A DNA stretch of 64,000 nucleotides. Origin: Octopus vulgaris (Eukaryota). The notes under the pieces are model-generated. The model saw only the letters and a list, made by a program, of their open reading frames with translations. It did no database searches and was not told the origin of the DNA. A program made the translations under genes and the position numbers. Shown in pieces: positions 4,508 to 42,280 of the stretch. The DNA is taken from contig OX597815.1 of NCBI GenBank assembly GCA_951406725.2, forward strand, positions 135,780,001 through 135,844,000. The letters run 5' to 3'. Every line of letters starts with the position of its first letter. Within the stretch, counting starts at the first letter, position 1.

Positions 4508-5639
4508 CAGGGTGGGAAAGCTAAATTTACAATATTTTGAGGCAGGGATTGAAAGGCAGTGTATGACCAATTAGTTTATTGAAAGTCATGAAAATTTATT
4601 TGTCGCAAGTAAATTTACATAATAGCAAATGTTTTTATTCTATGTGTCCTTCTTTCTCAATAACTGCCTTCACACGCCTCCTGAAACTTGCACAAGTGTT
4701 CCTCAAATATTCGGGAGAAACTTCTCCCAATCTTCTTTAATAGTATCTTTAAGAGAGTCGACATAGCTGTGTGATGTTCTATTGGCAGCATGTTCTAAAA
4801 CGCCCCAAATAACATAATCCAGAGGGTTTAGATCTGGGCTAGAAGGCGGCCATAAACATGATTCAAAAAAATTGCTAAAGTTGCATTTGAAGAAATTTTG
4901 TATTTTTCTAGCTGTGTGGGCTGGAGCATCATCCTGTGTTCATACATAATTACCATCTGGGTAGTTTGCTTTAAGCCATGGCAATACCTGGTATCTCAGA
5001 GTCTTGTATTAAGTATTAATACTGATCTTTTCCTCAGCTTTGTAGAATTTTATAGGCATTTTCTTTCCATCGGAAGCCACAACACCAGAAACCATAACTT
5101 GAGTAGGATGTTTTGTTTTGAATGTCCCCTTAAATTCAGCTGTCGATTTTGCGATAAATCTGTCATTTCTGCGGTTCAGAACAGCATCGACAGTGAAAAT
5201 CTTTTCATCTAAAAAGATCGTTACAATGGAGAACTTTTTCTTGAAACATGTAATAATTTTCTTGCATCTTTCCAATCTCTTTTCCTTCATAGTTGTTGTC
5301 AACAAGTGTTTTGGTGTTCTTACGTAAGATTTTAACCTCAAATCATAGTTTACTGCATTTCTAATGGTCTTGCTGTCTACCTCAAGTTCAATTGCCAGTT
5401 TTCTCATGGATTTGGTTGGATCCTTTTGGATTTGGGATTTGAGAGCTTTAAGAAAAGCTTTGTTACGTTTTTTGTTGATTCCTCCACCTCCAGACTTCCT
5501 CGTATTAGTTTTGCTCATAGTCATTCTACCCTTTACATTATAAACAGTCTTTATGGACACTCCGACTTTTCTTGAAATCTCCTTTGGTGTGACGAGTGCA
5601 TTCAACAAAAACATACTGATTGTTCCATACTATATAATG

Positions 5640-5693
<54 letters not shown>

Positions 5694-5777
5694 TATGCTA
5701 GGTTTCAAAACAATTGACTTAGTGCTTGCTGAGAAAAAACAACTTAACGTTCATTGTAAATTTTGTTTCATCACCCC

Positions 5778-5778
<1 letters not shown>
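4508..5778 (-). mobile_element. Near full-length Tc1/mariner DD37D (maT) transposon, transposase disrupted
   Basis: TA-flanked imperfect TIRs cagggtgggaaagctaaatttacaat / cggggtgatgaaacaaaatttacaat. ORF 5614-5009 has an HTH region and FLDEKIFTVD. A downstream frame gives QD(37 aa)D ending WPPSSPDLNPLDY. Contains stops/frameshift and a (TAA)n insertion at 5632-5692. Confidence 0.92.
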
Positions 5779-5823
<45 letters not shown>

Positions 5824-5841
5824 GCACAGAGGCACACACAC

Positions 5842-5930
5842 ACACGTATGCACACACACACACACGTATGCACACACACACACGTATGCACACACACACA
5901 CGTATGCACACACACACACGTATGCATACA
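5842..5930. repeat. About 18-bp minisatellite (cacgtatgcacacacaca)n
   Basis: Four visible units of cacgtatg-(ca)n. Confidence 0.85.
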
Positions 5931-7012
5931 CACATATTATCAGTAAATCACAAGTCGACAAAAAAGATAGAAAGAAAATATCTATTAGAAGAAATTTATT
6001 GAATTGGTGCCATAAAGCTATTTAACGGTCCTTGTAATTTGTGAATAACCATTTACAAAGGTGTAGGAGAACTAGTCAAAATAAATAAATAAAAAATAAT
6101 GTCGTTAAGGTCCAGCATATTTATGTTCTTACTTCATGAAGGTGACTTATACCTTTGTAAAGTGGGCTTTATACTCGAAGTAATATGATCATTAAATAAT
6201 TTTCAACGTAACTCTTGAATATTTTCGTTCCTTTTTATTGTTATACAAACTTCTATCTGCATTATTGTTGCCTTCAAGCACACAGTTATACATACACACA
6301 CATACACATACATGCATAAATGCACTCGCACATTCCCTAGATCACACACACGCTGCTCTCTCTGTGTCTGTCTCTCTATCTCGCTCTCTCATACACATTA
6401 CAGTTGTCACCTGAAGGCAAGATTATATCGCTAAACCTTTCAACCTCAATTTGGTGAGGAAAGAAACAAGTTCTCCTAATCTAACTTTCGATGATAAATA
6501 TTTTGACTTCAATTTTATTCAGTTGTCTGTGGAATATTAGGTAATTTCCAATTGCCTTTCGTTGGATTTAGTTGTTACCCCACAACCCTTCAGGTCATCT
6601 ACAAAGTTAGCATGAGAAATGTTTTTGGATTCAAGCTATCCTTTTCCTGTAAGAGCTGTGTTTCTGTGAGCTGGTATGATGATATTTTTAATGAGAGAAT
6701 AAAAGCAGTACCTCTTACATCAGTCTTCAGAGTAATGTTTTGGTAATGCATGCTGTCAGATTTGATTAGTTTGCAATAAACTTTGATTAGGTGTTGAATC
6801 GTAGCTGGCATTAACTACCTAATTTAAGCTAATATGCTTTGATAATCCTCTCGTGGTGTGCTAACAAAGGTATTCTGGTATTCCACCTGCACTTCTGCCA
6901 TCTTCTTGCAGGTTTTTACTAATTTTTTGTGATATCCTTTTCTCGATTAGTAGCTGCTCGAAACAGCTTTATACTCACTTCTTCTTCACAGTTTGTTCAG
7001 TTGTAATAATAA

Positions 7013-7430
7013 AGCAGCGAACTGGCAGAAACGTTAGCACGCCGGGCGAAATGCTTAGCGGTATTTCGTCTGCCGTTACGTTGTGAGTTCAAATTCCGCG
7101 AGGTCGACTTTGCCTTTCATCCTTTCGGGGTCGATAAATTAAGTACCAGTTAAACACTGGGGTCGATGTAATCGACTTAATACCTATGTCTGTCTTTGTT
7201 TGTCCCCTCTGTGTTTAGCCCCTTTGTGGGTAATAAAGAAATAGGTATTTCATCTGCCGTTACGTTCTGAGTTCAAATTCCGCCGAGGTCGACTTTGCCT
7301 TTCATCCTTTCGGGGTCGATAAATTAAGTACCAGTTACGCACTGAGGTCGATGTAATCGACTTAATACCTATGTCTATCCCTGTTTGTCCCCTCTGTGTG
7401 TAGCCCCTTGTGGGCGAGTAAAGAAATAGG
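7013..7430 (+). mobile_element. SINE family A: full unit plus tandem head-less second unit
   Basis: gcgaactggcagaaacgttagc...gagttcaaattcc...gcctttcatcctttcggggtcgataaattaagtacc...aaagaaatagg; the body repeats from 7244. Confidence 0.9.
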
Positions 7431-7551
7431 CACAATGATGCTATGTGTATGTATAGATATACGTATGGCTATGTATGTATGTATGAATGTACATACATAT
7501 GTTTGTGTGTGTTTGTTGTGTGTGCGTCGTGTAGTCGTATGTATATATGTA

Positions 7552-7626
<75 letters not shown>

Positions 7627-7666
7627 TTACATATATATATATACACATAACTATATATATATATAT

Positions 7667-7823
7667 ACAAGAACGCGAGGAGGTGGAACAAATATAGTAT
7701 TATTGGACGCTCAGGAAGAAAGGGAAGAAGGAGGGTTTAACGTCTCGAGCGGAGATCTTCGTCAGAAACATAGGAAAAGGAAAGATCCAGAGAAGGGAAT
7801 AGGGAAAAAAAAAATCGCGGTCA
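7667..7823 (-). mobile_element. (TA)n-flanked short element with minimal hammerhead motif (family H2)
   Basis: Homologous to 33257-33447 (+). HHR at 7735-7769: gttt-CTGACGA-a-gatc-tcc-gctc-GAGA-cg-TT-aaac. Confidence 0.75.
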
Positions 7824-8032
7824 CATATATATATATATATACATGCAGATCGGTGTATTGGTGTTTTGATGCTGTTTGACTTGATGCCAAAATATTGTAG
7901 CTGTGATGATTTAGTCCTTTAAGGGTATGAAATTACATACATTAGATATATTAAATTCTGTACACAATAGAAAATGTTGTTATTCAATGTGTCCGCCTAT
8001 CTTTGGGGCTCAATAAAATCTCTTTCCTGTTT

Positions 8033-8195
8033 CCTGAAACTGTGCACAAGTGTTCCTCAAATATTCGGGAGAAACTTCTCCCATTCTTCTTTAATATTAT
8101 ATCTTTAAGAGAGTCGACTTAGCTGTGTGATGTTCTATTGGCAGCATGTTCTAAAACGCCCCAAATAGCATAATCCAGAGGGTTTAAATCTGGGC
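8033..8195 (-). mobile_element. Internal fragment of the maT transposase (matches about 4680-4840)
   Basis: Near-identical gcacaagtgttcctcaaatattcgggagaaacttctccc...cataatccagagggttt; no TIRs. Confidence 0.88.
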
Positions 8196-8633
8196 GAGTA
8201 AAGCAGAATATCGAAACTGATCATGAAAATACGGGATGCCAATATCCTCAGTTCATGGAATTTCCATGCAGAGTATCCTACACTACATTCCGTCTTTTAC
8301 TATAGATGTCTCCGATGTTTTACCTCAGACCAGTGTTTCTCAAATGCCTTTGTCGTCCTTCTGGTTCTCATTCTGATAAGGACTGGAGTGGAAATGACGC
8401 TATACTACCTCTGCTACCACCACCACCACCACCACCACCACAAAAACCACCACCACCACCACCAAACCAAACTACTACAACAACATATAATAATAATAAT
8501 GATGATGATGATGATGATAATCCCTTGGAAGAAAGCTGAAAACTTGTGGATACTTAAGGTTACAGGTAGTAACTCGCTACCCACATAAATACTACCAGGA
8601 TTAAGACCGAACCTGAGCTAAACTAAACTAATC

Positions 8634-8683
<50 letters not shown>

Positions 8684-8684
8684 T

Positions 8685-9058
8685 TTTTTACTATAGGCAC
8701 ACGGCTGAAATTTTGCGGGAGGGAGCTAGCTCGGCACCCTTAATTGTTTCAAATTTTTGGCAGAAATCCAGCAAGTTTGGAGGGGTAAGAATATTACAGT
8801 ACTCCCAGTGCTTAGGTGATAACTTATTTTATCGGTCCCGAAAGGATAAAAAGCAAAGCCGATGAAATTTGTACTCCTACGAAATGCTTAGCAGCATTTC
8901 GTCCCTCTTTAAGTTCTCTGTTCAAATGCCGTCGAGGTCGACTTTGCCTTTCATTCTTTCGGGGTCGATAAAATAATTACCAGATGAACACTGGGATCGA
9001 TGTAATCAACTTGCTCCCTCCTCCGAACTTGCTGGCCATTTTCAAAATTTGAAACCAA
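8685..9058. mobile_element. Decayed SINE family A fragments in both orientations
   Basis: Contains gaggtcgactttgcctttcattctttcggggtcgataaaa and the reverse-oriented cccgaaaggataaaaagcaaagcc. Confidence 0.7.
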
Positions 9059-9099
9059 TAGTACACCAAGTACTTCTATAGTATTTCCTCAGTTGATGG

Positions 9100-9780
9100 A
9101 GGATGTTTTATTCAACATACCGACAAAGACTACTAGCAATTGCTCTTTCGTGAGCGTAAGAAACGATTCTGTCTTTCAAGCCACAAAGATAAGTTATTCT
9201 TTTTGTCTCACTTTCCGATAACGGACGTAGGTATAGATCACTTTCCTTTGTTACACAGCTTTGCCAAGCAAACTCTTTCTCTGCCAAACAATTCATTACT
9301 AGGACTCACATGTTTAAAGCATTTCGGATGAAACGTTGGAACAACTTTCTCTGTTTGGCAATTCAGACAATCTATTCTTTTCTTCACGTGAAAGAACGTG
9401 TGTATGTTACTGTTGTTGCTGCTTCTGTTATCCTTAGACACTTAATCTTGTGACAAAAATTTCTTATTTTTCCGGTATGCGAAATATATGTGTTATATTG
9501 AAGATTCAAATACCATTTTGTTACTATCTATTAGAAGTAAAACATATCTGTTATAGTTAAAGACACTCCACAATTACCATTTTTTGAGTTCTTCTACGCT
9601 AACAAGTATGTATCTTTCAGACATGCAGTGGTCACTCAGTCGCAGCCATTCGGACTGTTTCACCTTCAGGAAAGTTTCCCTCCTCCGTGCTTCCGTTTAC
9701 GGAAGCTCTGCAAGAAAACTCAACGATACTATCCTTTCATCCTTGATAAAAATATCCTTTTAACCATTTTGTTTACGAAA
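9100..9780 (-). mobile_element. Possible highly decayed mariner remnant
   Basis: A minus-strand frame ends ...CGLKDRIVSYAHERAIASSLCRYVE*, resembling the mariner C-terminus (GDYVE*); no catalytic motif recognisable. Confidence 0.3.
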
Positions 9781-9938
9781 GGTAAAAAAAAAATTGCTTT
9801 TTAAAAATTTCCCCTCTAATGGATAAGAATTAATAGAAGTTCCCACCTCTCTTTATAGAAGTTCGGCATTAATAAATGTTTACCAATTATTTCACTGGGC
9901 AATAATCACAATATATATATATATATATAATACATACA

Positions 9939-9972
<34 letters not shown>

Positions 9973-9989
9973 CATACATACATACATAC

Positions 9990-10068
<79 letters not shown>

Positions 10069-11143
10069 GTGTGTGTGTGTGTATTTGTGTGTATATACCT
10101 CAACAGTTTTTTCATTTATAGTTGTGCCGTGTGCTGCAAGGCATAATTTAAATCTCAGGCAAGCTGAGATTGCAGCATTTTTCTCATCTCTCTGTTTTGC
10201 AAGCTTTGTGAAAACGTAGGCATTTGAAAGAAAAATAAGCATGCACATAACAATACCTCAGATCCTTCTCCTAGAATATTAATCTGAAATAGTGGTGAAT
10301 TAGAAAAAAGAAAATTGGATATTATGCATCAAGTGGCTCACGATGCAACTAGGTATCGCTGAATGATTAACAATTTCTTTTCGCAATCACATAAATTTTC
10401 GTTCGATTCCACTGTTTGTCATCTCGGCAACTATGCGGAAGATCGTCGTATGCACACAAAGAGAAAACGCAAGAACGCGAGGAGGTGGAACAAATATGTA
10501 AATGTCGGTGAGAAAAATAGAAATTCTTTTCAAACAAAGTCACTGGACGTATTTATTGTATAACATTTGACCGTCACTTCCTTGTCTCTCTCACCGCCAG
10601 AAATGCAGTGAGCCGGTGTTCGGCTATTTGAAAAACTTTACCCAACGATGTTCTTGATCACCACAAGCAATGTAAAATACGATAACAGTGTTATATTAGC
10701 GATTTCTATTAGGCAGGGCACCAATGGTCAATATTTCACGGAAAGATGGATACTATGATGTTTTAGAGTTGGTCTAACACATCACCCGAATTAACACTAC
10801 GGCCATCAGGAGCTGTGGAGCATTTAATGGAATCTGTTATATTTATATCATGTTAAGGGGCCAAGTAAAATCTCTTTCCTGGGTACGTTGTGTGCATATG
10901 TCAACATATTTCTGTCTGTTCGTACATACGTTTAAAATTCAAGGTTAATGAACATTGCTTCCATTTTCTTTAAACAATTTATTTTAAAAAAGAAATATGA
11001 GCGCGATGTAAGTGATGTTAACTTGTCGCTGTGGTCCACTTGCGCAAGTTAACATCGACCTCGTACTATATGATGCTGGCGCGAATAATGAACAGTATTG
11101 ATTACTAAAATCACAATATATATATATATAATAAATACATACA

Positions 11144-11262
<119 letters not shown>

Positions 11263-11436
11263 TTCTGTCTTGCGAGGACTCACCCTCCAAAGGTTTCAAC
11301 TGACCATACTGACCCTACCATCAACAAGTCTCGTAATTATTTCAGTGAATTCTGTATATTGAACAGCTGGCTACTGATTTTGATATAAAGAGACACTAAT
11401 ATACACAGCTTTACATGGCTATATAATTAACTGGCA

Positions 11437-11753
11437 ATCTGTTGGTTACGACGACAAGGATTCTAGTTGCTCCGATCAACGGAACAACTTGCACGTGGAA
11501 TTAACGCGTTTAATGGCTGAGTACTCCGCAGATTCGTGTACTCTTAATGTAGTGTCAGGAGGATTTAGCGTGATACAAAATGTGATAAGGCTGGCCCTTT
11601 GAAATACAGGTACTAATTATTTTTGGCAGCTAAGTGAACTGGAGTAACGTGAAATAAGTGTCTTGCTCAAAGACACAGCGCGCTACCAGTATTCGAACTC
11701 ACGACCTTACGACCGTGAGCCGAATACGCCTAACTACTAAACCACGCGCCTTC
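11437..11753 (-). mobile_element. tRNA-derived SINE, family D
   Basis: Reverse complement of gaaggcgcgtggtttagtagttagg...gagttcgaat; homologous to 26524-26853 and 52364-52677. Confidence 0.8.
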
Positions 11754-12475
11754 ACGAATACATTCACGGACATGGACGCAATCACTTACAAAACACATAC
11801 ACGCACTCGCGCACACACACACACACACACACTCACATTCACACACTGAAGCACATATGGACATATACTCTGCCCCGTTTCCCATCTTTCAATCTCGTTT
11901 ACAGCATTGGTCAACCCTAAGCTACATAATGAAAATACTGGATCAAGGGGCTGCGCAGTGGAGTTGAACCTAAAATCATATGGTTGAAAAAGCGAATTTC
12001 TATATCTGCGTACATCGTTGGGTGATTTTCAGTTGGCAATCACTACTGCATGGAGAGTTATAGGTCTTTCTCTCTCTCACACACACACGCACAGAGCATA
12101 TAATACTGATTTTTAATAAACCACGAGGTCACAAATATTGGTCGATTTAATGGATTTCCAATATTTGTCTCGTGCCTACTTTATCGACATCAGATCGAGT
12201 CAACGAAGAAACATCTATGTGGTCATTCGACCAGATAAATATCGCCGTCATTTGCTAACGAAGCCCTAGATATATCAAGTCTGAAAATAATATCTGGAGG
12301 TGACAGATGAGTCGGTTTTGATCATATGTCTACTTTGTCTGAGTTACCTGGAATTAAGCATTACTATCAGCAATAGCAAGAAAATCAATAACAACTCTAA
12401 CTTCGAATTAATGATAACGGAGCGTAATGGCATTCTATCCTGCGCATAACTAATTAAGCCATCGTCTAACCTGGC

Positions 12476-14251
12476 CAGAGCCCGATTAACTATTAAACAA
12501 AATAAGCACATGCTTAGGGCATCAAAGGAGAGAGAGAGAGACCACCACAGAGCTTTTTACTATTGCCAGTAGCCGTAAGCTTTGAGCTATAACTAAATTT
12601 AGTATTTGATTCCCATGGGAATAATATAGACTTTGGTTCCACCTCAATTTTGTCATAGATCTCCAGCAACTGTTCAGTCACTAGGGCTTGTGCAAATAGA
12701 TGTTTCTTTTCAGACAGAACACCTTTTAAACTACCTTTGATGTTAACAACTCCTTTCTTTAGAGTGGTCACATGAAAGTAGGAACCATTTTTTGTTTGGT
12801 GATTGACTCGGAAATATTCAGCAGGAAATAAAGCTTCAATTATGAGATTATCTGATGGATAAATCTTGTGATTTGAAGAATCAAAAATTTCAAACAGATT
12901 TCATAATTTCTACCGGTTTCCAACACCCATTTTGTGTGTGATAAAACAACAAAACTTATGTAAGCTGGTTCAACAACATATATTAAAGCAGAAGGTTGGT
13001 ACGACTGTTCACTGTCTTGGATATTTCGGTCTCGTAAAACAATTTCAGTGGAACCAAAACTAATTGCTTCAGCTTCTGAGGTTTCCGGATTAAATGAACA
13101 GATGTCTGGTTTGACAACTTCCATGTAATATTGTGGAGAAGGCAAATAAATTCGAGTAATGACATTCTGCCTGATTTGTTCCAGTTTATAAAAGACTTTG
13201 CCATGAACCAACACGTGTACACTAGGAGGGTTAATCATCAAGTTGGCAATCACCGTCAAACTCACCGTGGCCGGGGGAACATTTTTATATATTGGGTCAA
13301 AGAGGGTTGCTTCAACTGTAGAACTGCCAGTTTTAACAGACTCCACTAAGACAATGTCACCAGTTTTTCCAGCTCGTTCTAATGGTGATATGTGAGGTGG
13401 GGTCTGGTATTTAGAATCTTCAAACTTTAAGAATTTAAGATTTTGTTCTTCAAAAAATTTTTTGTCTCCATTTGGCAAAAATTTCCAGTGGAATTCCATA
13501 CCACTCAGAGTAGTGAAGACATTTTCTTCATTATCATAAGCATGAACTGCAAGTATTTCAGGAGTGTCATCAAGAGATATTAGTCGAGTTGTAGTGGAGA
13601 TTGAGAAACGTGATATCAGGTCAACAATAACATAACAGTGAAACACCTCATTTGATATCTTATCTTCAGCAAATATGATTGAAGTCATTTTGTGGTCAGT
13701 TCTTGATACAGTTGAAACCACAGCATGCAACGAACAATCTTCCTCCAGCAAATTCATAGGGGTCACAGCAACCACTTCAGGGTGGGTAGATCTCCATGTG
13801 TAGCAGTGGTTATGTTCGGCTTGCTCTTCTTTCGTTAAGTTTACCTTTAAAGTAAAGTTCGAGATTGTTGTAGGACTGTACGGTAATAACACTTTAGGTG
13901 CATTTAATTTTCCACCACTGACACATGCTAAATTATAACAAAAAGAAAAAGAAAAATTTTTAAAAGGTGTTGAAAATTTATATATTTCCTGTTTCTCTAA
14001 ATACTCATAAATAATTGTTATATTGCTTGCTGCCATTTAGTGTTAAATAAATTGTTTAGAAAAGCAATTCATATCTAATATAGCTATTGAGTCTGGCTTA
14101 GTGGAATGGCTACGATAAAAAACTTAGTTTATACATGTTTTTTTTCACATTATGCGTTTATGTCGAAATGGTTTGCTAAACAATGGAAGAGTTGAGAGTG
14201 CACCATTTCTGGGTGATGTTGAGGGCGTAGGTCAGCATTAATCCAGCTTTG
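12476..14251. mobile_element. hAT-like non-autonomous TIR element enclosing the Nup210 copy (candidate Pack-TIR)
   Basis: Left end cagagcccgattaa (12476) versus right end reverse complement caaagctggattaa (14251), 11/14 match, resembling CAGGGCCGGATTAA-type hAT ends. Subterminal tgcttagggc / tgttgagggc. 8-bp flanks aacctggc / aacgtaga match 5/8. Confidence 0.6.
12560..14036 (-). pseudogene. NUP210: Intronless, 3'-truncated copy of nuclear pore membrane glycoprotein 210 (N-terminal about 450 aa, one frameshift)
   Basis: LNAPKVLLP, CYTWRSTHPEV, TSIIFAED, AYDNEENVFTTLSGMEFHW, IYVVEPAYI, WVLETGR match recalled Nup210 motifs. After a 1-nt frameshift near 12893 the homology continues (EIFDSSNHKIYPSDNLIIEALFPAEYF, NGSYFHV, ILFPW) and ends near 12560. 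No introns and no poly(A). Confidence 0.92.
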
Positions 14252-14292
14252 AACGTAGAAGATAAGGCCTCAATTTTTTTAGGAAGTGAGTG

Positions 14293-14356
14293 TTTCCCGC
14301 TCAAATCATTTCCTGCTCAAAGCATTTCCCGCTCAAAATATTTCCCGCTTAAAGCA
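14293..14356. repeat. 4 x 16-bp tandem repeat (tttcccgctcaaagca)
   Basis: Units start at 14293, 14309, 14325 and 14341. Confidence 0.92.
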
Positions 14357-14469
14357 TTTGCAGAAAATGTAAGGTGAAAAGGCTTTAGTGTAGGACTGAA
14401 ACGTTATCCTTGCTTTCCTTCACTGCTCACAAGTCGCATGCATGTATGGAGGAAATAATTTATAGAATC

Positions 14470-14702
14470 TATTTCTTTACTACCCACAAGGGGCTAAACA
14501 CAGAGAGGACAAACAAAGACAGACAAAGGGATTAAGTCGATTATATCGACCCCAGTGCGTAACTGGTACTTATTTAATTGACCCCGAAAGGATGAAAGGC
14601 AAAGTCGACCTCGGCGGAATTTGAACTCAGAACGTAACAGCAGACGAAATACCGCTAAGCATTTCGTCCAGCGCGCTAACGACTCTGCCAGTTCGCCGCC
14701 TT
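14470..14702 (-). mobile_element. SINE family A, full copy
   Basis: Reverse complement of the 7013 unit, head ggcggcgaactggcagagtcgttagc. Confidence 0.9.
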
Positions 14703-15589
14703 CTAATAATTTATAGAATCGTCAGAGCATTGAAAAAAAAATGTCTCTGGTATGCATTACGGTCCTATAAGTTCTCACGTCAAATCCTACCACTGTCAAC
14801 TTTGTCTTCCGTACTTCCGGGGTCGATAAAATAAAGTGCCAATCAAGTATTTGTTCGATTTAATATTTCTACAGATTCATCTAGCCGTGAATGATATCAT
14901 AACAGAAATGAAATAAAACCACAATTTTAACCCATTAATGCATAGCGTTTCAAAAATAAGAGTTATAAAATTATTCAATACAAACCATTTATCGATTGTA
15001 ATTAATAGTATAATATAAATTAAACTTTATGCATTAATGGATTAATGTCTTTTGGACGAACCATGAACATATATGATTATATCCTATTTAACTTCTAGCT
15101 TTACATTTCTCTTCCTGGGTTAAAGTTAGAAAATTATTGACAGTATCAATTGGGCGAACCTTTGCGTTTGAGTCGACATCACCTTTTATAATTATTGGTT
15201 CAATAAAATACATACGGGTCAAGTACAGGGCTTGATTGAATCGACGATACACCTGACCCGATAAAATGTTGCAGCTTCGCACCTGAATCAGTAATTGAAG
15301 GCATGTATTCTACTGGTGACGCAACTTAGTTCTCAAACATATGATGTTGTCTTCGTTTTCCTTGCAGAAAGTACGTTGTCTCATTAAACAACCTACTTAA
15401 CTTCATGATGCTCCGGGCTACCCGACTAGGAAAAATCAGTATTACGTCCTACGGAGCACTCGGCCAAAATCAAGTTAGTACGACAACATAAACAGTCAAA
15501 AACATTCAGGCCCAAGAAGTGATATGTTTAGCAGTGTAGCACTGAATCCTATCTTTCCCGCCAAGAAATCATTACGTCAGAGCAGAAAG

Positions 15590-15810
15590 ACGCCGAGCTG
15601 GTAGAATCGTTAGCGAGTCGGGCAAGACGTTTAACAGCATTTCTTCAAAGCTCTTTATATTTCTCGGTTCAAATTCTACCATGGCCGACTTTGCATTTCA
15701 TAATTTCGGGCTCGATAATACAAGTGCAAGCTAAACACTGATATCGATGTAATCGACTTACTCAACCCACTTCGTTAGAATTGCCGGCCTTTTGTCAGAA
15801 TTTGAAACCA
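15590..15810 (+). mobile_element. Decayed SINE family A
   Basis: gagctggtagaatcgttagc...gttcaaattc...cgactttgcatttcat...cgatgtaatcgactt. Confidence 0.75.
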
Positions 15811-16242
15811 TTATATCATAGCAGTAGAAGCAGAAGAGGGAAATTCCAACTACACTTTGTAGCTGTATTATTAAAAAGTCGCTCGGCAGCGATTCTGTTG
15901 GATTTGATCCTGTAGCGGAGAACTTTCGGGATGTGTCATTCTCGGGTGATGCATAGACATATATATATACATGTATATCTACACACAGATAAATATATGT
16001 ATAGATTTATAGATATTGACATATATATATATATTTAAATTCATATATATATATATATATGAATTTATATGTATATATATATAAACATATATATGTATAT
16101 ATGTATGTGTTTAAAATAAACATTCTCGTACCTTCTATCTTCCGTTTCTTTCATTAATCAAATACCCAACGAACACTGAGAAAGTGAACGTGCTTTACCG
16201 GTTAACTACTAGGTGTATATCATAGATTTACGAACTAATGTT

Positions 16243-16439
16243 CTTTTATTCTTTTATTTTTTATTTGTTTGAATCATTTGACTGCGGCCATGCTAGAGCA
16301 CTGCCTTTAGTCGAAAAAATCGACCCCAGGTCTTAGTCTTTGCAAACCTAGTATTTATTCTATCGGTCACTTTTGCCGAACCGCTAAGTTACAGAGACGT
16401 AAACACACTAACATCGGTTGTCAAGCGATGGTGAAGGGA

Positions 16440-16477
<38 letters not shown>

Positions 16478-16636
16478 TATTTACGGCGAGCTACTTTCAG
16501 TTTCCGTCTACCAAATCCACTGACAAAGCTTTGGTCAGCCTGAGGCTATAGTAGCTCAAGTTGTCATGCAGTGGGAGTGAATCCGGAACAATGTGGTTGG
16601 TAAGCAAGCTACTTGCCACACACCCACTCCTACGCC
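16243..16636 (-). mobile_element. tRNA-derived SINE, family B
   Basis: Reverse complement of the 22912 element, including the internal (CA)n. Confidence 0.88.
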
Positions 16637-17109
16637 TTTCTCTCCCTCTCCCCCCCCCCCCTCTCTCTCTCTATATATATATATTTATATATCTATGCGT
16701 GTGCATGTGTGATACCACTTGACAGCTTATGTCGGTTTGTTTACGTCCTCTTAGCTTAGAAGAGGACAGCATAAGCATCAGGTTCAGGGAAAAAAAAGAA
16801 AAAAAAAAAGGAATGTGTTCGACTGAAAAGTCTTGAAGGAGAGGCCTCAACACGTCTGCACTTTAATGACTGAAACAGCTAAAACAAAAACAAAAGGTAT
16901 ATATAAGGCGAGAGAGGGAGAGAGAGAAAGAGGGAGAGAGAGAGAAAGGGAGGGAAATTAATGTGTGTAGAGTTGCGCGCGAGTGGATACCACACTTCGC
17001 AACTGTTGCAGCATTCTGGCGATGCTTTTCTATGGAATTACGTAAGCAAATGCTAACACGCAGACAGACTCGCAGAAACTTATGTCAGAGTATCCCTTTC
17101 ACTCTGTCT

Positions 17110-18665
<1,556 letters not shown>

Positions 18666-18714
18666 ATACAAATGCAAATACTAATGTACATAAATACATA
18701 AATACAAACACAGC

Positions 18715-18811
18715 GTGATTCCGGTTTCCGTTCCACTGCATGATACCTTGAGCAAGAGTCCCACTATAGCCTAACGACAACCAAACCCAACTGAGTGGAT
18801 TTCAGAAAGGG

Positions 18812-18859
<48 letters not shown>

Positions 18860-19128
18860 GTGTGTGTGTGTTTGTGTTTGTGTGTATGTGTGTGTGCATG
18901 TATATATTTGTGTGTGTGTCTGTTTACCACCAACCATCATAGTCAACCGATGTTAGTGTGTTTGCGTCTCCGTAACGTAGCGGTTCGGCATAAGTGTGCT
19001 TACAAGACTTACAAAGAATAAGTCCCACAGTCAATTTGCTTCGATTAAAAAGGCTTTAAGGCGGTGCTCCAGCATGCCCGGCTTCCAAAAATGACTAAAA
19101 CAAGGAAAAGTATAGAAGAATAAAAGAA
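18715..19128 (+). mobile_element. SINE family B, decayed, with expanded internal (TA)n
   Basis: ccactgcatgataccttgagcaag...agcggttcggc...ggcggtgctccagcatg. Confidence 0.78.
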
Positions 19129-19130
19129 GA

Positions 19131-19181
<51 letters not shown>

Positions 19182-19369
19182 ACGTTATAATGTAATGTTT
19201 TAAATATACCGTAAATGGTCTTTTTACATACTGAACACTACTTGGCAAAATTAATTAATAATTAATTAATTTTACCCTTTTATTATTGACAAAATATGTG
19301 TATATATCTATGAATATATAAGTACACAGAAATATGTATATGCATATACACATATACACATATTCATAT

Positions 19370-19433
<64 letters not shown>

Positions 19434-19671
19434 TATATCTTATATATATATATATATATATACAATATATATATATATATTACGAACACACACACACACT
19501 TATATATATGATGAAAATGCATACCATATATTATGCATGTATAGATATATGCATATAGGTTAGAGAAATCAAACAAGATACCTACAAACCAAAACATTTG
19601 TTTATGTTATAATGATAATTATTTTACATTATGTATACACATATAATGTGGAATATGTAATGTAATTAATG

Positions 19672-19723
<52 letters not shown>

Positions 19724-20068
19724 TGTATATGCATATATATATACATATACATAGATATACATATATGTATATACACATATACATATGTGTGTGCATTTCT
19801 TTCTCTCCTCTACGCACACGTGCACACACACACGCGCGCGCGCACACACACACACACATATCTGGAATCTTTTGGGAAGGGGCAAGTCAATTAGATCGAC
19901 TCCAGTATGCTATTGGTACTTAATTTATCGTCTCTGAAGAGATGAGAGGTCGACTCTGCCTTTCGTCCTTTCGGGGTCGATAAATTAAGTACCAATTGCA
20001 TACTGGGTTCGATCTAATCGACTGGCCCCATCCCCTACAACTTAAGCCTTTTGCCTGAAGTAGAAAAG

Positions 20069-20105
<37 letters not shown>

Positions 20106-20111
<6 letters not shown>

Positions 20112-20245
20112 TAATGTAAAATTGATAGTGTAATATATATATATATATATATATAGTGTAATGTAAAATTGATAGTGTAATATATATATATGTATATATG
20201 TATATATATATATATATAGTGTAATGTAAAATTGATAGTGTAATA
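20106..20245. repeat. Three copies of tagtgtaatgtaaaattgatagtgtaa separated by (TA)n
   Basis: Identical 27-bp units near 20106, 20154 and 20217. Confidence 0.9.
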
Positions 20246-20498
20246 TATATATATGTATATATGTATATATATATATATGTATGTATATATATGTATATGA
20301 ATATATATATATGTATATATACAGTCAAACATACATACACACATACACATATGTATGTATTCACACATATATATATATATATACATATATGTGTACATTT
20401 CTCTATTACATATGTATCTATATATATGTTTATATATATATATACATATATGCATATTATGTAATATATGTTATCTCTATATGTATAAATACTTACAT

Positions 20499-20556
<58 letters not shown>

Positions 20557-20647
20557 CTTACATATATATATATATATATACACACTCACATATAACATAT
20601 ATTCTTTTATATGTTTTGTCCATAGGCTGTGTATGCTGGCTTACCTG

Positions 20648-20688
<41 letters not shown>

Positions 20689-20742
20689 ATATAATATAGA
20701 TATCATATCATATATATATATCATGTGTATATAAAAATCCTG

Positions 20743-20781
<39 letters not shown>

Positions 20782-21338
20782 CGAGAGGGACAGGGAAAGA
20801 GAGATAGATAGATAGATATACATTTACATACATACATATATTCGTATATATGTATACACACACGCACACACAGGCAATTTACACTTATATACACACACAC
20901 ACACACATATATTTATCTATAAATATATATTAATAGATAGATCGATAGGCAGACAGACAGCCAGAGAAAAAGATAAAGTGATTAATAAGCAAATATTTAC
21001 ACATTTATATGCATACATAGACACGCTCACAGAAATGCGCAAGCACATATTTTTATGTTATTTCTTTACTTGTATCCAACGAATCAAACCTAATCCTCAT
21101 TTTTTTGTAAAGCGTGGTACTTCTTTTATCAATATATTTTATCAAACCGCTAGGTAACATATACCCGCCATCGCCGCTTGTCAAGCAGTTGTGGGGGAAA
21201 AACACAAAGACACACACACATACATACATATATATATAAATACATACATACATACATTCATATACATATATATAAAATCAATTTATATATATAAATATAA
21301 CATATATATAAAATATATATATATATATATATATACAT

Positions 21339-21370
<32 letters not shown>

Positions 21371-21380
21371 GTATATATAA

Positions 21381-21431
<51 letters not shown>

Positions 21432-21443
21432 AAATATACATCC

Positions 21444-21660
21444 TTAAATCCTTAAAAATGTTTCCGCCCGAATGCTTCGGCCATGGTGGGGCACCACCGT
21501 TGAATGTCCTACAGTAGTATCTGAAACCACCTCTGATACGTGACACTTGGTCAAGAAAGGTGTTCGTCGCCGCTGCCCGCATCTGTGTTTCCTGCCGACA
21601 GGTAGGTTCATCTGGAACCCCTGACATAAGATCCAGTTTAGTTTTTTGTAAAACCTGGTA
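21444..21660 (-). mobile_element. 3' end of CR1/L2-group LINE
   Basis: GVPDEPTCRQETQMRAAATN, homologous to the 2310 and 42110 regions; tail ...aaacatttttaaggatttaaggat. Confidence 0.85.
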
Positions 21661-21727
21661 CTTGTTTTATCATTTATATATATATATATATATATATTTA
21701 GTGAGGGAAGAAATTTCCGCACTAAGG

Positions 21728-21765
21728 CACGGTTTTGAGACCCCATGGTCGTAACCTCAACCGTG
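21728..21765 (+). ncRNA. Degenerate minimal hammerhead-like motif in (TA)n-flanked insert 21698-21853
   Basis: cacggtt-TTGA-gacc-ccat-ggtc-GTAA-cc-TC-aaccgtg; perfect 7-bp stem I and 4-bp stem II, mutated core. Confidence 0.5.
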
Positions 21766-21848
21766 ATTTTTCTGTTGTGATTTTTGCTACCCAGGTATCG
21801 GTTATAATTTGAATAATCCGTAACAAGATAATTCATTTATCCATTTCA

Positions 21849-21922
<74 letters not shown>

Positions 21923-22157
21923 ATATACACACACGCATATATATATGTATACACTCACATCGGGCTTCTTTCGGTTTCCCTCTACCAAATCCTTTCACAA
22001 GGCTATGGTCAGGACGAAACTACAGTAGGAAGCACGCGCCCAACGTGCCACACAGTGGAACTGAACCCGAAACTCTGTAGATGGGAAATAAACTCCTAAC
22101 AGCATGTACACACACACACACATATATATATAAATACATATATGTATACATATATAT

Positions 22158-22216
<59 letters not shown>

Positions 22217-22333
22217 CATATATGTATTCATATATATACATATCCATGTGTGTGTATACATATGTGTATTCATATATTTATATATATGTATGTGTATAGA
22301 TATATATATATATATAAATGTATATGTATATGA

Positions 22334-22374
<41 letters not shown>

Positions 22375-22388
22375 TGCATATATATCTA

Positions 22389-22459
<71 letters not shown>

Positions 22460-22468
22460 GTATATGTA

Positions 22469-22516
<48 letters not shown>

Positions 22517-22911
22517 GACATATATGTATATTTTGCGTGCAGTGTTGGAGAAGGTCACAGTATGCACATGGCGAAAGGGAGAGGGGAAATAATGCAGGAG
22601 AGATACGTCATTTTTCGTTTCAAGCGTTTAAATGCTGGAATTGTACCGCTTCTCTAGCAACATATAAATAAACACAAGCAGACACACATACTCGCGTAGT
22701 GACACGAACACACGCACACACGAACATAGACGTGCATTACTTGTTGCGTGTTGCTTTCTGTGATATAATAGATAACTTAAAGTTGTGGGAATGCTGATTT
22801 GCCGAATTTAAGTCACCGCTGGCTATGGATTTTCTTATTGCCTCGTTTGAATTAGTTAAATTCCGAATGATCACTTAAGAATGGTATTAGACTAAATAAA
22901 TAAATAGATAT

Positions 22912-23083
22912 AGGCGCAGGAGTGGCTGTGTGGTAAGTAGCTTGCTAACCAACCACATGGTTCCGGATTCAGTCCCACTGCGTGGCATCTTGGGCAAGTG
23001 TCTTCTGCTATAGCCCCGGGTCGACCAATGCCTTGTGAGTGGATTTGGTAGACGGAAACTTAAAGAAGCCCATCGTATATGTG

Positions 23084-23114
<31 letters not shown>

Positions 23115-23312
23115 TTGTCCCCCCCCGAACATCGCTTGACAACCGATGCTGGTGTGTTTACGTCCCCGTCACTTAGCGGTTCGGCAAAAGAGACCGATAG
23201 AATAAGTACTGGGCTTACAAAGAATAAGTCCCGGGGTCGATTTGCTCGACTAAAGGCGGTGCTCCAGCATGACCGCAGTCAAATGACTAAAACAAGTAAA
23301 AAGAGTAAAAGA
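22912..23312 (+). mobile_element. tRNA-derived SINE, family B, full copy
   Basis: A-box tggctgtgtgg and B-box-like gattcagtccc, central domain cttgggcaagtgtctt, internal microsatellite, LINE-like tail. Further copies at 21960-22100, 41184-41590 and 42765-43025. Confidence 0.92.
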
Positions 23313-23491
23313 GTATATAAGCAGAGTAAGTAAAGAATTACAGGGAAGAAGTGCTATTATGTCTTGTAGCAGAAATTGTAAAGCGTAACTTGAAGTTTAA
23401 ATTCTTCTTTGCTCTAAGTTCAAATGCAATTTAGTGTTTCATAATTTCGGTGAAAATTCGTTAGAAGTATACTTGTGTATCGATACAGTTA

Positions 23492-23692
23492 CGACGGGGT
23501 GCTGAAAAGTTCCTGGCTTTAAGGGTATGAAGAAAGGCATGGTTAGAGGGCCAAACTTTCGGGTTCTTTTACAGGGCTTAGAAAATCTGCAGTGTGTGTA
23601 TCTGAGAGGAAATATTTTGAATAAAATCATAATTAACCGATCCTCCTGTATTTTATTTTACCCAAAGCCAGGAACTTCTCAAGCACACCTCG
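23492..23692. mobile_element. Mariner-type MITE (about 200 bp)
   Basis: TIRs cgacggggtgctgaaaagttcctggcttt / aaagccaggaacttctcaagcacacctcg, TA on both sides. Confidence 0.85.
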
Positions 23693-23755
23693 TAGCTAAT
23701 TAGCTAATAAGAGGCCATCTGTTAGCTATCTATGTACAAGTATATATATATATAT

Positions 23756-24508
23756 TGTATCAGACTGCCAAAAGGGAAGCTAGGAGACAGGTCTATCTAG
23801 CCAGAGGGGAAGCAGATAAGAAAAAAATTGCCAATGTTCTGCGCCGTGAGGACCAAAGACTGGAGGTGTTTTATCGCGTTGCAAGACAGTGTGTGAGAGA
23901 GAATTGTGATGTGGTAGGAGAGAAGTGTGTTCGCATGGAAGATGGTTCACTTGCGCTAAATGAGGATGCAAAGAGAGAGGTTTGGAGACGCCACTATGAA
24001 AGGTTGCTGAATAAAGAAAATGAATGGGATAAAGAGAGTCTGCCGAATGTTGACCCAACAGAGGGACCAGCTATCCGAGTTGACAGTTCCTTGGTAGTTA
24101 AGACAATTAGAAGCATGAAGACAGAGAAAGCCCCAGGCCCATCAGGAATCACTGCAGAGATGCTCAAAATATCTGGTAGTGTCGGCTATAGCCTAGTCAC
24201 CCGTATAGTTAATCAGGTGATACACGAAGGAGTCATACCCAATGACTGGTGTAGCAGCATAATAGTCAACTGCTACAAAGGTAAAGGTGACGCCCTAGAT
24301 ACAAATAATTACAGAGGTATCAAGCTGTTGGATCAGGTAATGAAGGTTACGGAGAGGGTCATAGCCCAACTAATTAGAGAGAGTAAGTTTAGATGAGATG
24401 CAGTTTTGGTTCGTGCCAGGGAAAAGTACCACTGATGCTATATTCCTGGTAAGGCAGCTGCAGGAGAAATACCTAGCCAAAGATAAGCCCCTGTACCTGG
24501 CTTTGCTG
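23756..24508 (+). mobile_element. RTE-clade LINE reverse transcriptase fragment running into the gap
   Basis: KAPGPSGITAEMLK, IPNDW, YKGKGDALDTNNYRGIKLL, then (frameshift) FVPGKSTTDAIFLVRQLQEKY. Confidence 0.92.
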
Positions 24509-24608
24509 NNNNNNNNNNNNNNNNNNNNNNNNNNNNNNNNNNNNNNNNNNNNNNNNNNNNNNNNNNNNNNNNNNNNNNNNNNNNNNNNNNNNNNNNNNNN
24601 NNNNNNNN
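24509..24608. other. Assembly gap (100 N)
   Basis: Run of N; true size and adjacency across it are unknown. Confidence 1.
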
Positions 24609-29324: not shown

Positions 29325-29922
29325 TTCTTTTCTACTCTAGGTACAAGGCCCGAAATTTTTGGAGAGAGGGTCAGTCGATTAGATCGACTCCAGTACGCAA
29401 CTGGTACTTAATTTATCCACACCGAAAGGATGAAAGGCAAAGTCGACATCGGCAGAATTTGAACTCAGAATGAAAAGACAGATGAAATACAGCTAAGCAT
29501 TTCGCGCGGCGTGCTAACGCTTCTTATTTCTTAATTGCCCACAAGGGGCTAAACACAGAGGAGTCAAACAGGGACAGATAAAGGGATTAAGTCGATTACA
29601 TGGTACTTAATTTATCGACCCCGAAAGGATGAAAGGCAAAGTCGACCTCGGCGGAATTTGAACTCAGAACGTTACGGCAGAGGAAATACCTATTTCTTTA
29701 CTACCCACAAGGGGCTAAATACAGAGGAGACAAACAAGGACAGGCAAACGGATTAAGTCGATTATATCGACCCCAGTGCGTAACTGGTACTTATTTAATC
29801 GACTCCGAAAGGATGAAAGGCAAAGTCGACCTCAGCGGAATTTGAACTCAGAACGTAACGGCAGACGAAATACGGCTACGCATTTCCCCCGGCGTGCTAA
29901 CGATTCTGCCATCTCGCCGCCT
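29325..29922 (-). mobile_element. Tandem array of three SINE family A units
   Basis: Three repeats of ccgaaaggatgaaaggcaaagtcgac..cggaatttgaactcagaa; the middle unit lacks the head. Confidence 0.9.
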
Positions 29923-39755: not shown

Positions 39756-40770
39756 CTAGAGATAGATCTTTTTCGCCCTTCTCTCCAATAACATAATTAT
39801 AATTATAAATATAAGTATGTTGTGGTCCGAAACTAATGTCGGTATCACTTTCACATTTTGGACAATGTCCACATTGTTTGTGAAGCAGAGATCCAAAATG
39901 TTATTTACCCTAGTTGGTTTGAGCACAACTTGCTCCATGAATGGGGCACTGATGGGGTTGAGCAGGGACTCCACCTTTGCTTGTTTACAATGAGTCATTC
40001 GTGAGAGCATGAGGCCTTCAGGCCATTTGGCATTGGAGAAATTGCTCACATGGTGATCCAGTTTCATGAGGATTTCTTTAATTCTTGTGAAGCAATCTCC
40101 AAACTTGCCTATGTGGTTTGGAGCATCCGATGGGTGAATTTTATATTGTGTATTCTTATATATACTATTAGAGTGTCACATACTGAATTTGAGTATGACA
40201 GTAAGAACTGAGGCGTGAGGTCTTCAGGGATGTATATAACAACTCCACCATGGTTCATTTCCCTTCTGTCTGTTCGCAGTATGGTATATTTTGGTACGTG
40301 TGATTCTGCATCCTCTATACCAGGACTCAGATGAGTTTCCATGAGTGCTATGCATAGGGCTTGATTGCATATAGCAAGGTTTCTCAGGAAAAAAATGTGC
40401 TTTTGTTGTTGTGATGTAACAGGCCCCCGATATTTAGTAAAAATATTGGCGTGACAACTGTGCAGGCATTAGGGGAGGCCATTCCGTGTCTGTTGATTGT
40501 GGTGGCCTTGCGCAGTGGAGGGCAAGGTTCCTTGTTTGGGTTTGAGGTACCCAGATCGGCTGCTGCACAATCTTTACGCCATGCACAAAAAAGACTCTTG
40601 CTCAGCTGCTGCCTTGCACAAAACATCTCAAGACCGAACTGCATTTATATATTTTTTCTTTGGAGACGACTAGTGCCTTTCCTCAGGGAAGTATTTCTCC
40701 TTAAGGCCCCAGTAGTTTTGGTGTGGTCTTCAGTGAGCAAACCGGCAGTGAAAGACGCTTCTGGTTTTTC
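39756..40770 (-). mobile_element. CR1/L2-group LINE 5' portion: APE endonuclease plus upstream region, decayed
   Basis: LLNIGGL, METHL, ILRTDR...GGVVIYI, PTRVNNILDLCFTN, SDHN. Confidence 0.88.
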
Positions 40771-41590: not shown

Positions 41591-41674
41591 ATTTATAAAT
41601 ACATATATATATAGATAAAAAACAAATGAAAGATAGAAGATGGAATATACGAGTATTTATTATTATATATATAT

Positions 41675-42280
41675 CAGCCGCCTGGATTACTGCTCATTGC
41701 TATGGTCACCCACCAGTGTAAAATTAACAGCGGACCTTGAAGCAATCCAGGGAAGATTCACAAAGAAGATCGTCTCTTTGCAACAGCTCAGCTACTGGGA
41801 AAGGTTGAAACAGCTAAGACTCTACTCCCTGGAGAGAAGACAGGAGAGGTATGCAGTAATATATGTCTGGAAGATCCTGGAAGGAATTGTGCCAAATGTT
41901 GGCATTGTAAGCTACACCAATGCTAGAACGGGACGACACTGCATAGTGCCAAAGATCCCAGCAATGCCATCACGCTTCAGGACCAGCTTCTGCAACAGCC
42001 TGGGTTTCAAGGGCCCACAGCGTTTTAATATTCTCCCAAAGAGTCTGAGGAACTTGCACAAAGTAGATGTAGCGGTTTTTAAATCAAAGCTGGACATCTT
42101 CCTGTCGAGAGTCCCAGATGAACCTACCTCACGGCAAGAGGTGCAAATGAGAGTAGCTATATCAAACTCCATTCTTCACCAAGTGCCACATATTAGAGAG
42201 GTTCTTCGCAATAACAGTGTAGCACAAAACGGTGGTGCATCAGCATGGCCGCTGCTCTGAGCTGAAACTAGAGAAAAATA
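41675..42280 (+). mobile_element. CR1/L2-group LINE: RT C-terminus and 3' end
   Basis: SRLDYCSLLWSP, LEAIQGRFTK, LSYWERLKQLRLYSLERRQER; same family as 1563-2490. Confidence 0.92.

Follow-up and report, generated by a model that had tools for sequence, protein, structure and literature searches.

How did an intronless piece of the Nup210 gene come to lie between the inverted ends of a transposon-like element: was it captured and carried by a DNA transposon, or was it deposited in an element that was already resident? The question is raised by a locus in a 64,000-nt stretch of the Octopus vulgaris genome (contig OX597815.1, positions 135,780,001 to 135,844,000; hereafter the window), for which a sequence-only reading had allowed both answers. 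We compared the contigs of four of 24 listed sequencing runs with positions 12100-14465 of the window; three of these runs are of DNA type (X2, X4 and X5, the kind of X4 not being on record) and one, X6, is of RNA type by guess, none of the listed runs being on record as RNA. The 31 contig pieces listed form the basis of the statements below, with 878 further pieces standing outside the list.

The cargo, read from 13934 to 12565 on the minus strand, encodes Nup210 residues that are without exception identical to those of the 1,906-aa protein P0001 (named Octopus vulgaris), with 100% identity over residues 13-360 and 361-469, the two reading frames joining at about 12891. Pfam recognizes the NUP210 Ig domains 1-4 (Ig_NUP210 1-4) in this piece, which represents the 5' quarter of Nup210 and is missing the first 12 codons, start codon included, as well as most of the signal peptide and the transmembrane part. 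No further Nup210 exons are found within the 64-kb window, the parent gene lying outside it. The locus had been described as about 1.45 kb of uninterrupted Nup210 N-terminal coding sequence; the piece is indeed intronless and on the minus strand, but it measures 1,370 nt and its frame is broken behind 12890. An RNA-type contig (X6, 2,647 nt) extends at both ends into Nup210 and aligns to 12566-13935 with no other letters and one gap. The cargo is very young, with near-zero divergence from the mRNA. The earlier observation that a poly(A) is missing holds, the 3' edge of the cargo showing neither poly(A) nor an AATAAA or ATTAAA signal and the longest A run being 5.

That the cargo derives from RNA can be seen from its parent, which was found with introns in all three DNA-type runs. 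In X4 and X5, exon-sized matches to the cargo turn into unlike sequence at 12572/3, 12711, 12849/50, 12955/6, approximately 13019-13024, 13153, 13283 and 13794, and in one X5 contig the two neighbouring exons that meet at 12711 are separated by about 560 letters. Contig edges at 13526 and 13658 in X2 hint at two further introns, and since 13285-13758 is uncovered in X4 and X5 and introns there were not counted, the number of eight is a lower bound. A partial Argonauta model (P0017) begins at residue 317, adjoining the exon boundary at about residue 316. As the parent carries at least eight introns where the cargo has none, the cargo is spliced and RNA-derived, in agreement with the sequence-only reading. 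We rejected the notion of a real gene with one giant exon, given that the parent introns are seen in DNA contigs and that both cargo edges fall inside parent exons.

A second, diverged spliced piece of Nup210 was also observed, matching 12910-13011 with five other letters and four gap letters in 106; it spans the exon junction 12955/6 before turning into unlike sequence, and carries the same differences in X2, X4 and X5. Probably it is a processed fragment of greater age that has become fixed elsewhere in the genome and also ends internally.

The inverted ends that enclose the cargo (12476-12489 and 14238-14251) match at 11 of 14 positions, a level reached by chance in 0.4% of random pairs and weak alone; there are 259 inverted pairs in 11800-15000, and the 12476/14251 pair is not among the 25 longest. 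The 8-bp flanks agree at 5 of 8 positions (p ~0.016), and the subterminal motif TGCTTAGGGC at 12511-12520 recurs as an 8/10 copy at 14217-14226. All three features are as first described, and the ends and flanks gain weight only from family data. The bin 12495-12573 has a summed contig depth of 5,753-24,116 as against about 50 beside it, with many loose contig ends at 12484-12529; being matched by so many contigs, 12484-12529 is part of the terminus of a high-copy family. Metagenome contigs scanned with a motif pattern (119 loci from 14 of 64 parts) yielded 20 left ends of a related family, seven of which belong to complete elements. The left 45-50 nt of these elements are mostly 78-88% identical to the left end in the window, a likeness that is partly built into the search pattern, as the right ends are not, and a profile scores the window's left end at 52.0 bits with the next site at -9.1. 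The flanks of the seven complete elements match at 8/8 positions in three, at 7/8, 6/8 and 1/8 in one each, and are cut by the contig end in the last. Five of the relatives (L009, L010, L048, L052 and L069) share with the window the start of the TIR, the motif at both ends and the 21-nt and 11-nt spacings, the window copy differing from them in its decay, above all at the right end. As an observation in its own right, complete MITEs with the same ends, 265-814 bp long and several with perfect 8-bp duplications, are present in L009, L010, L048, L052, L062, L069 and L101; the likeness of left ends across hosts could reflect constraint or horizontal spread.

The right end is less clear. In a profile of six right ends from the relatives, 14198-14251 is the best of 127,894 positions, narrowly (2.4 as against 1.6 bits), and it aligns gap-free with the right ends of the relatives, with the same 11-nt spacer and 22-29 of 54 positions identical. 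A blastn search of the right arm against the 119 metagenome loci gave no match at E 0.05, nor is the depth at the right end increased by any further octopus contig at 85% likeness. We consider it likely from these comparisons that 14198-14251 is the true partner of the left end. The proposal of MITE-type ends stands firmly for the left end, whose relatives carry 8-bp duplications, and only weakly for the right. We class the element as putatively hAT-type from the 8-bp duplications and the type of its TIRs; other superfamilies also make 8-bp duplications. No convincing further family member was found within the window, and neither a named family nor an autonomous partner was found for the MITE in a search of open-access text. 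Folding of three arm stretches gave z values of -0.38, 0.04 and -1.70, with no clear fragile hairpin.

An empty form of the site is present in each of the three DNA-type runs (X2, X4 and X5), where, between the same flanks, 12570 is joined to 13929 with 18 other letters between. In X4 and X5 the depth of this joint equals that of the flanks (35.6/35.6 and 43.8/43.8, respectively), the exon pieces of these runs run on into introns, and their contigs give no sign of the filled form. The joint contig of X4 and X5 extends beyond the right TIR to 14465 and, doing so at flank depth, demonstrates an empty element at this very locus. This element is short (about 436 bp) and non-coding, and only 18 bp of it, or 4.1%, were lost. 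X4 and X5 have differences from the window in common and look like a sister lineage. The element is older than the split from X4 and X5 and decayed, and very probably received its substitution-free cargo later, as a resident. Of the two answers offered by the sequence-only reading, a processed piece that landed in an old MITE fits these observations, and the empty site that it proposed to look for in relatives was found in all three DNA-type runs, the apparent sister lineage included; capture tied to transposition does not fit an empty element at the locus in three of three runs with only 18 of about 436 bp lost. Template switching of an LTR element was also rejected, the arms being of TIR type and the empty site lying at the same locus. 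Just to the right of the element, a 16-bp minisatellite (14293-14372) has one unit more in each of X4 and X5. The features of the locus are collected in Table 1.

Table 1. Features of the filled element and its flanks (window coordinates)
Feature	Position	Strand	Remarks
Left flank 8-mer, putative decayed target-site duplication	12468..12475	+	5/8 match with 14252-14259
Left end of high-copy MITE family	12476..12540	+	TIR 12476-12489, subterminal motif 12511-12520
Left arm of resident element	12476..12570	+	Present in empty allele
Microhomology CCAGT (5 nt), cargo 3' junction	12566..12570	.	Joint reaches 12570; alignment of RNA-type contig starts at 12566
Spliced Nup210 cDNA piece	12566..13935	-	Codons 13-469 of 1,906; at least 8 introns gone; no ATG; no poly(A)
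One base missing relative to mRNA (frameshift)	12890..12891	-	Base present in RNA-type contig and all 3 DNA-type runs; a real loss or an assembly error
Microhomology TAAATTA (7 nt), cargo 5' junction	13929..13935	.	Joint compared with ends of RNA-type contig
Right arm of resident element	13929..14251	+	In empty allele; single-copy depth from 14075 on
Probable right end, decayed	14198..14251	+	Motif 14217-14226, 11-nt spacer, TIR 14238-14251
Right flank 8-mer, putative decayed target-site duplication	14252..14259	+	5/8 match with 12468-12475

The site appears to be polymorphic, with the empty form in three of three DNA-type runs and X2 apparently heterozygous by indirect signs, the filled allele being read from the shape of the assembly graph. 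The joint stands at half depth in X2 (24.2, with flanks at 50-58.7), and exactly 30 letters make up its short side, which suggests a graph branch at 12570, as if a second path leaves there. Two short X2 contigs (139 and 107 nt) terminate at the exon edges on both sides, which is the pattern expected from coexisting spliced and unspliced paths. The word share of X2 (0.81) lies between the 0.74 expected without the copy and the 0.94 expected with the copy fully kept, with a sampling error of about 0.03; the word shares of X1 and X3 (0.81 and 0.80) cannot show the presence of the copy, 0.795 being expected without it. Against heterozygosity stand this intermediate word share of X2, one X2 exon contig (record 5) that passes into its intron with no break where one would be expected, and the lack of an X2 junction between flank and cargo among the 31 contig pieces listed. 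The window itself may also derive from the X2 sample, which would then not be an independent witness. These observations also bear on the suspicion that the filled form is an assembly artefact, in which transcript sequence or chimeric reads were placed in the scaffold. The near identity of the cargo to the mRNA, the intermediate word share of X2 and the finding that none of the 31 contig pieces listed is an X2 junction between flank and cargo would suit such an origin. An artefact nonetheless seems very improbable, as it would not account for DNA contigs that break at exon edges in X2 and do not in X4 and X5, for an empty allele of X2 that stands at half depth and branches exactly at 12570, or for microhomology at both junctions.

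The contigs show no trace of a further copy of the cargo, and the transposon very probably did not move it. In X2, X4 and X5 alike, the contigs of the right arm cross 14251 unbranched into a single flank at flank-level depth, and several copies with differing flanks and duplications, as multicopy Pack-TIRs have, were not found among the contigs of the three DNA-type runs; contigs drop rare variants, and the single-copy verdict holds as far as they show. The earlier suggestion of a DNA transposon amplifying a host gene is contradicted by the unbranched right arm, and a single-copy cargo, which the sequence-only reading had itself named as evidence against mobilisation, is what the contigs reveal. 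A multicopy Pack-hAT, whereby the MITE captured the cDNA elsewhere and later moved or amplified it, is scarcely credible for the same reason and because of the empty element at the same locus, even though the cargo does lie between MITE ends. In X2, one exon contig reaches a depth of 120.5 against flanks of 50-58.7, which would favour amplification, but the four X2 exon-only contigs listed average about 88, or about 1.5 times the flank, and contig depth is not copy number.

A subtler role for the transposon would be that a transposase excised the MITE and that the gap, while under repair from the homologue, was filled after a template switch to Nup210 cDNA. The position of the cargo between TIR-bearing arms, the microhomology on both sides and the recent activity of some hAT families in O. 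vulgaris (available text of PMC13282606) are compatible with this scenario. It is rendered highly unlikely by the state of the element, whose TIRs match at 11/14 and flanks at 5/8 positions and whose right end is badly decayed, by the contrast between an element common to the X4/X5 lineage and a very young cargo, and by the loss of only 18 bp where larger losses near the ends are expected (PMC8277862, as far as its available text goes).

The junctions carry microhomologies whose chance frequencies, in 400,000 random template-target pairs, are 0.0067 (5 nt) and 0.0006 (7 nt), together with the loss of 18 bp of target, no target-site duplication and no TTTT/A site. On the left, pairing between 12557-12570 and the mRNA could extend over 14 positions in a row (nine Watson-Crick and five G-U/T-G wobble, judged by eye on a loose contig end), a run reached by two of 400,000 random pairs, noticed post hoc and equally compatible with RNA and cDNA as template. 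The 5' junction of the cargo follows the parent ATG by 36 nt, with the RNA-type contig ending 79 nt away, so that copying may have proceeded nearly to the 5' end of the mRNA, if the contig end is close to the true one.

We hypothesize that a 1,370-nt spliced Nup210 patch replaced 18 bp of a resident MITE relic where the chromosome had broken, once, recently and without transposition, and consider this the probable origin of the locus. The match of signature, namely a spliced insert, an empty site, an 18-bp loss, microhomology at both junctions and neither poly(A) nor duplication, points to an event of the class 2 TSIP or RMDR type. The relic would have suffered the break in a germ cell or an early embryo, whereupon the left 3' end would anneal within the Nup210 mRNA, or a cDNA of it, at 12566-12570 and perhaps along all 14 wobble-tolerant positions. 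A reverse transcriptase, most likely that of an active LINE working without its endonuclease, would then copy nearly to the 5' end of the mRNA, and the new strand would anneal to the right end at 13929-13935, the flaps being trimmed and the gap sealed, to leave a heterozygous, single-copy retro-CNV. Recently active LINEs are reported from O. vulgaris in the available portions of PMC13282606 and PMC9115989. The LINE as the patching enzyme is weakened by the lack of microhomology at endonuclease-independent L1 insertions, as stated in the accessible part of PMC4516963; in human cells, polymerase zeta has been suggested to serve as the reverse transcriptase of repair in cis (PMC12065846).

Alternatively, a LINE of RTE, CR1, Dong-R4 or Tx1 type may have nicked the relic and carried out internally primed TPRT on the Nup210 mRNA, with annealing of the 5' end and a small target deletion. 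The plus strand that ends at 12570 pairs with the mRNA as such priming would demand, copying came within 79 nt of the 5' end of the RNA contig, annealing is a known route for LINE 5' ends (PMC4760211, from the part available), and all four clades have recently active copies in O. vulgaris (PMC13282606, likewise). The lack of a target-site duplication, of poly(A) and of a TTTT/A junction speaks against a nick, and so do microhomologies of 5 and 7 nt, which are longer than the 1-2 bp of the zebrafish LINE annealing route and lie within or slightly above the 2-6 bp of MMEJ, going by the same portion of PMC4760211. We regard a LINE nick as possible but on the unlikely side, and the junction marks by themselves do not separate a spontaneous break from a LINE-endonuclease nick. 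What the two explanations have in common, namely a single insertion of a spliced piece into a resident site with no part played by transposition, is very likely correct.

The repair patch that we favour has precedents. Class 2 TSIPs are polymorphic templated insertions with spliced cDNAs among their donors (Onozawa and Aplan, PMC5110952, available text), and the octopus insert resembles them in having a distant template, no duplication, no poly(A) and a microdeletion with microhomology, while it differs in host, length and site: class 2 TSIPs are described there from human, with experimental inserts of 73-414 bp, and here 1.37 kb lie within a MITE of an octopus. RMDR with double microhomology (PMC4516963, in part) likewise uses partial spliced mRNA truncated at both ends, with short microhomology and no poly(A), but was seen at CRISPR breaks in mouse zygotes with spliced pieces of 0.3-0.8 kb, unlike the natural, inherited insert with a known empty allele and longer microhomologies observed here. 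Of the marks of class 2 TSIPs and RMDR, this locus shows a distant template with an intact donor, neither duplication nor poly(A), a microdeletion with microhomology, missing introns and, by the indirect signs given above, polymorphism.

The single-copy, transposition-independent type of Pack-TIR (Tan et al., PMC8277862, available text), for which a median gap of 4.6% is given, is similar in its foreign filler within a TIR element, empty orthologous element and breakpoint microhomology, the gap here being 4.1%. The fillers described in that text are genomic DNA, often from nearby, unlike the spliced RNA filler here, whose parent lies outside the 64-kb window. The same source states that intronless copies of multi-exon genes were discarded to control for retroduplicates, and the octopus insert accordingly falls outside Pack-TIR membership. 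LINE-made processed pseudogenes and retroCNVs (PMC5470649, from the accessible part) are also intronless, polymorphic copies of host mRNA, but they retain the 3' end together with a remnant of the poly(A) and duplicated target sites, as opposed to the 5' quarter kept and target bases deleted in the octopus; the 3' end with poly(A), the target-site duplication and the TTTT/A site of a classical (class 1) LINE retrocopy are absent. No such insert in octopus or other cephalopods and no spliced cargo in a MITE were found in open-access text.

On the minus strand of the right arm, an ATG at 14036 shares the frame of the cargo and is followed by 34 open codons (14036-13935) leading up to it. The possible chimeric frame as assembled comprises 398 aa and ends at 12840; were the missing base restored to match the parent, it would extend to 12514. 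Among 2,551 candidate proteins none of 218-697 aa is annotated for the copy, which is not evidence either way, and the RNA-type run X6 has no joint from the cargo into the arms, which is not evidence of silence. The insert is most likely a functionless young retro-CNV. The cargo edges mimic a splice acceptor with pyrimidine tract and AG (13929-13966, minus strand) and a GC donor (12560-12570, minus strand), a coincidence of the microhomologies by which a gene predictor could call the insert an exon.

The type of event is already known, and the junction marks at this locus are unusually clear. The locus offers a natural, inherited patch of spliced RNA in an invertebrate, with both alleles in hand, where repair-type patching by spliced RNA is otherwise described from human polymorphisms (PMC5110952) and edited mouse zygotes (PMC4516963), as far as the available parts of these papers go. 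If wobble-extended pairing were enriched at the priming junctions of many inserts, priming on RNA could be tested against the use of pre-made cDNA from genomes alone. It is doubtful that broken ends in octopus commonly prime reverse transcription inside intact mRNAs via wobble-tolerant hybrids, as a recurring route that would duplicate 5' gene halves without poly(A) and fill TIR relics with spliced cargo, in this case giving a chimeric frame started by an ATG of the MITE arm; the older spliced Nup210 fragment, which also ends internally, lends itself to this idea. Were it true, RNA-filled TIR elements would form a class that the animal Pack-TIR survey filtered out (PMC8277862, by its available text).

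Elsewhere in the window, a remnant of a Tc1/mariner-like transposase lies at 5009-5629 on the minus strand (PF01498, E 5.9e-05, below the curated cut-off). By eye, the frames 23704-24396 (+), 39756-40468 (-) and 41637-42260 (+) resemble remnants of LINE reverse transcriptase or endonuclease; Pfam gave no match to these three frames at E 0.01, and the first of them abuts a gap of 100 N at 24509-24608. A repeat, likely a SINE, starts at 14469-14500, with more copies at about 7212-7244, 7397-7429, 29525-29555 and 29690-29719.
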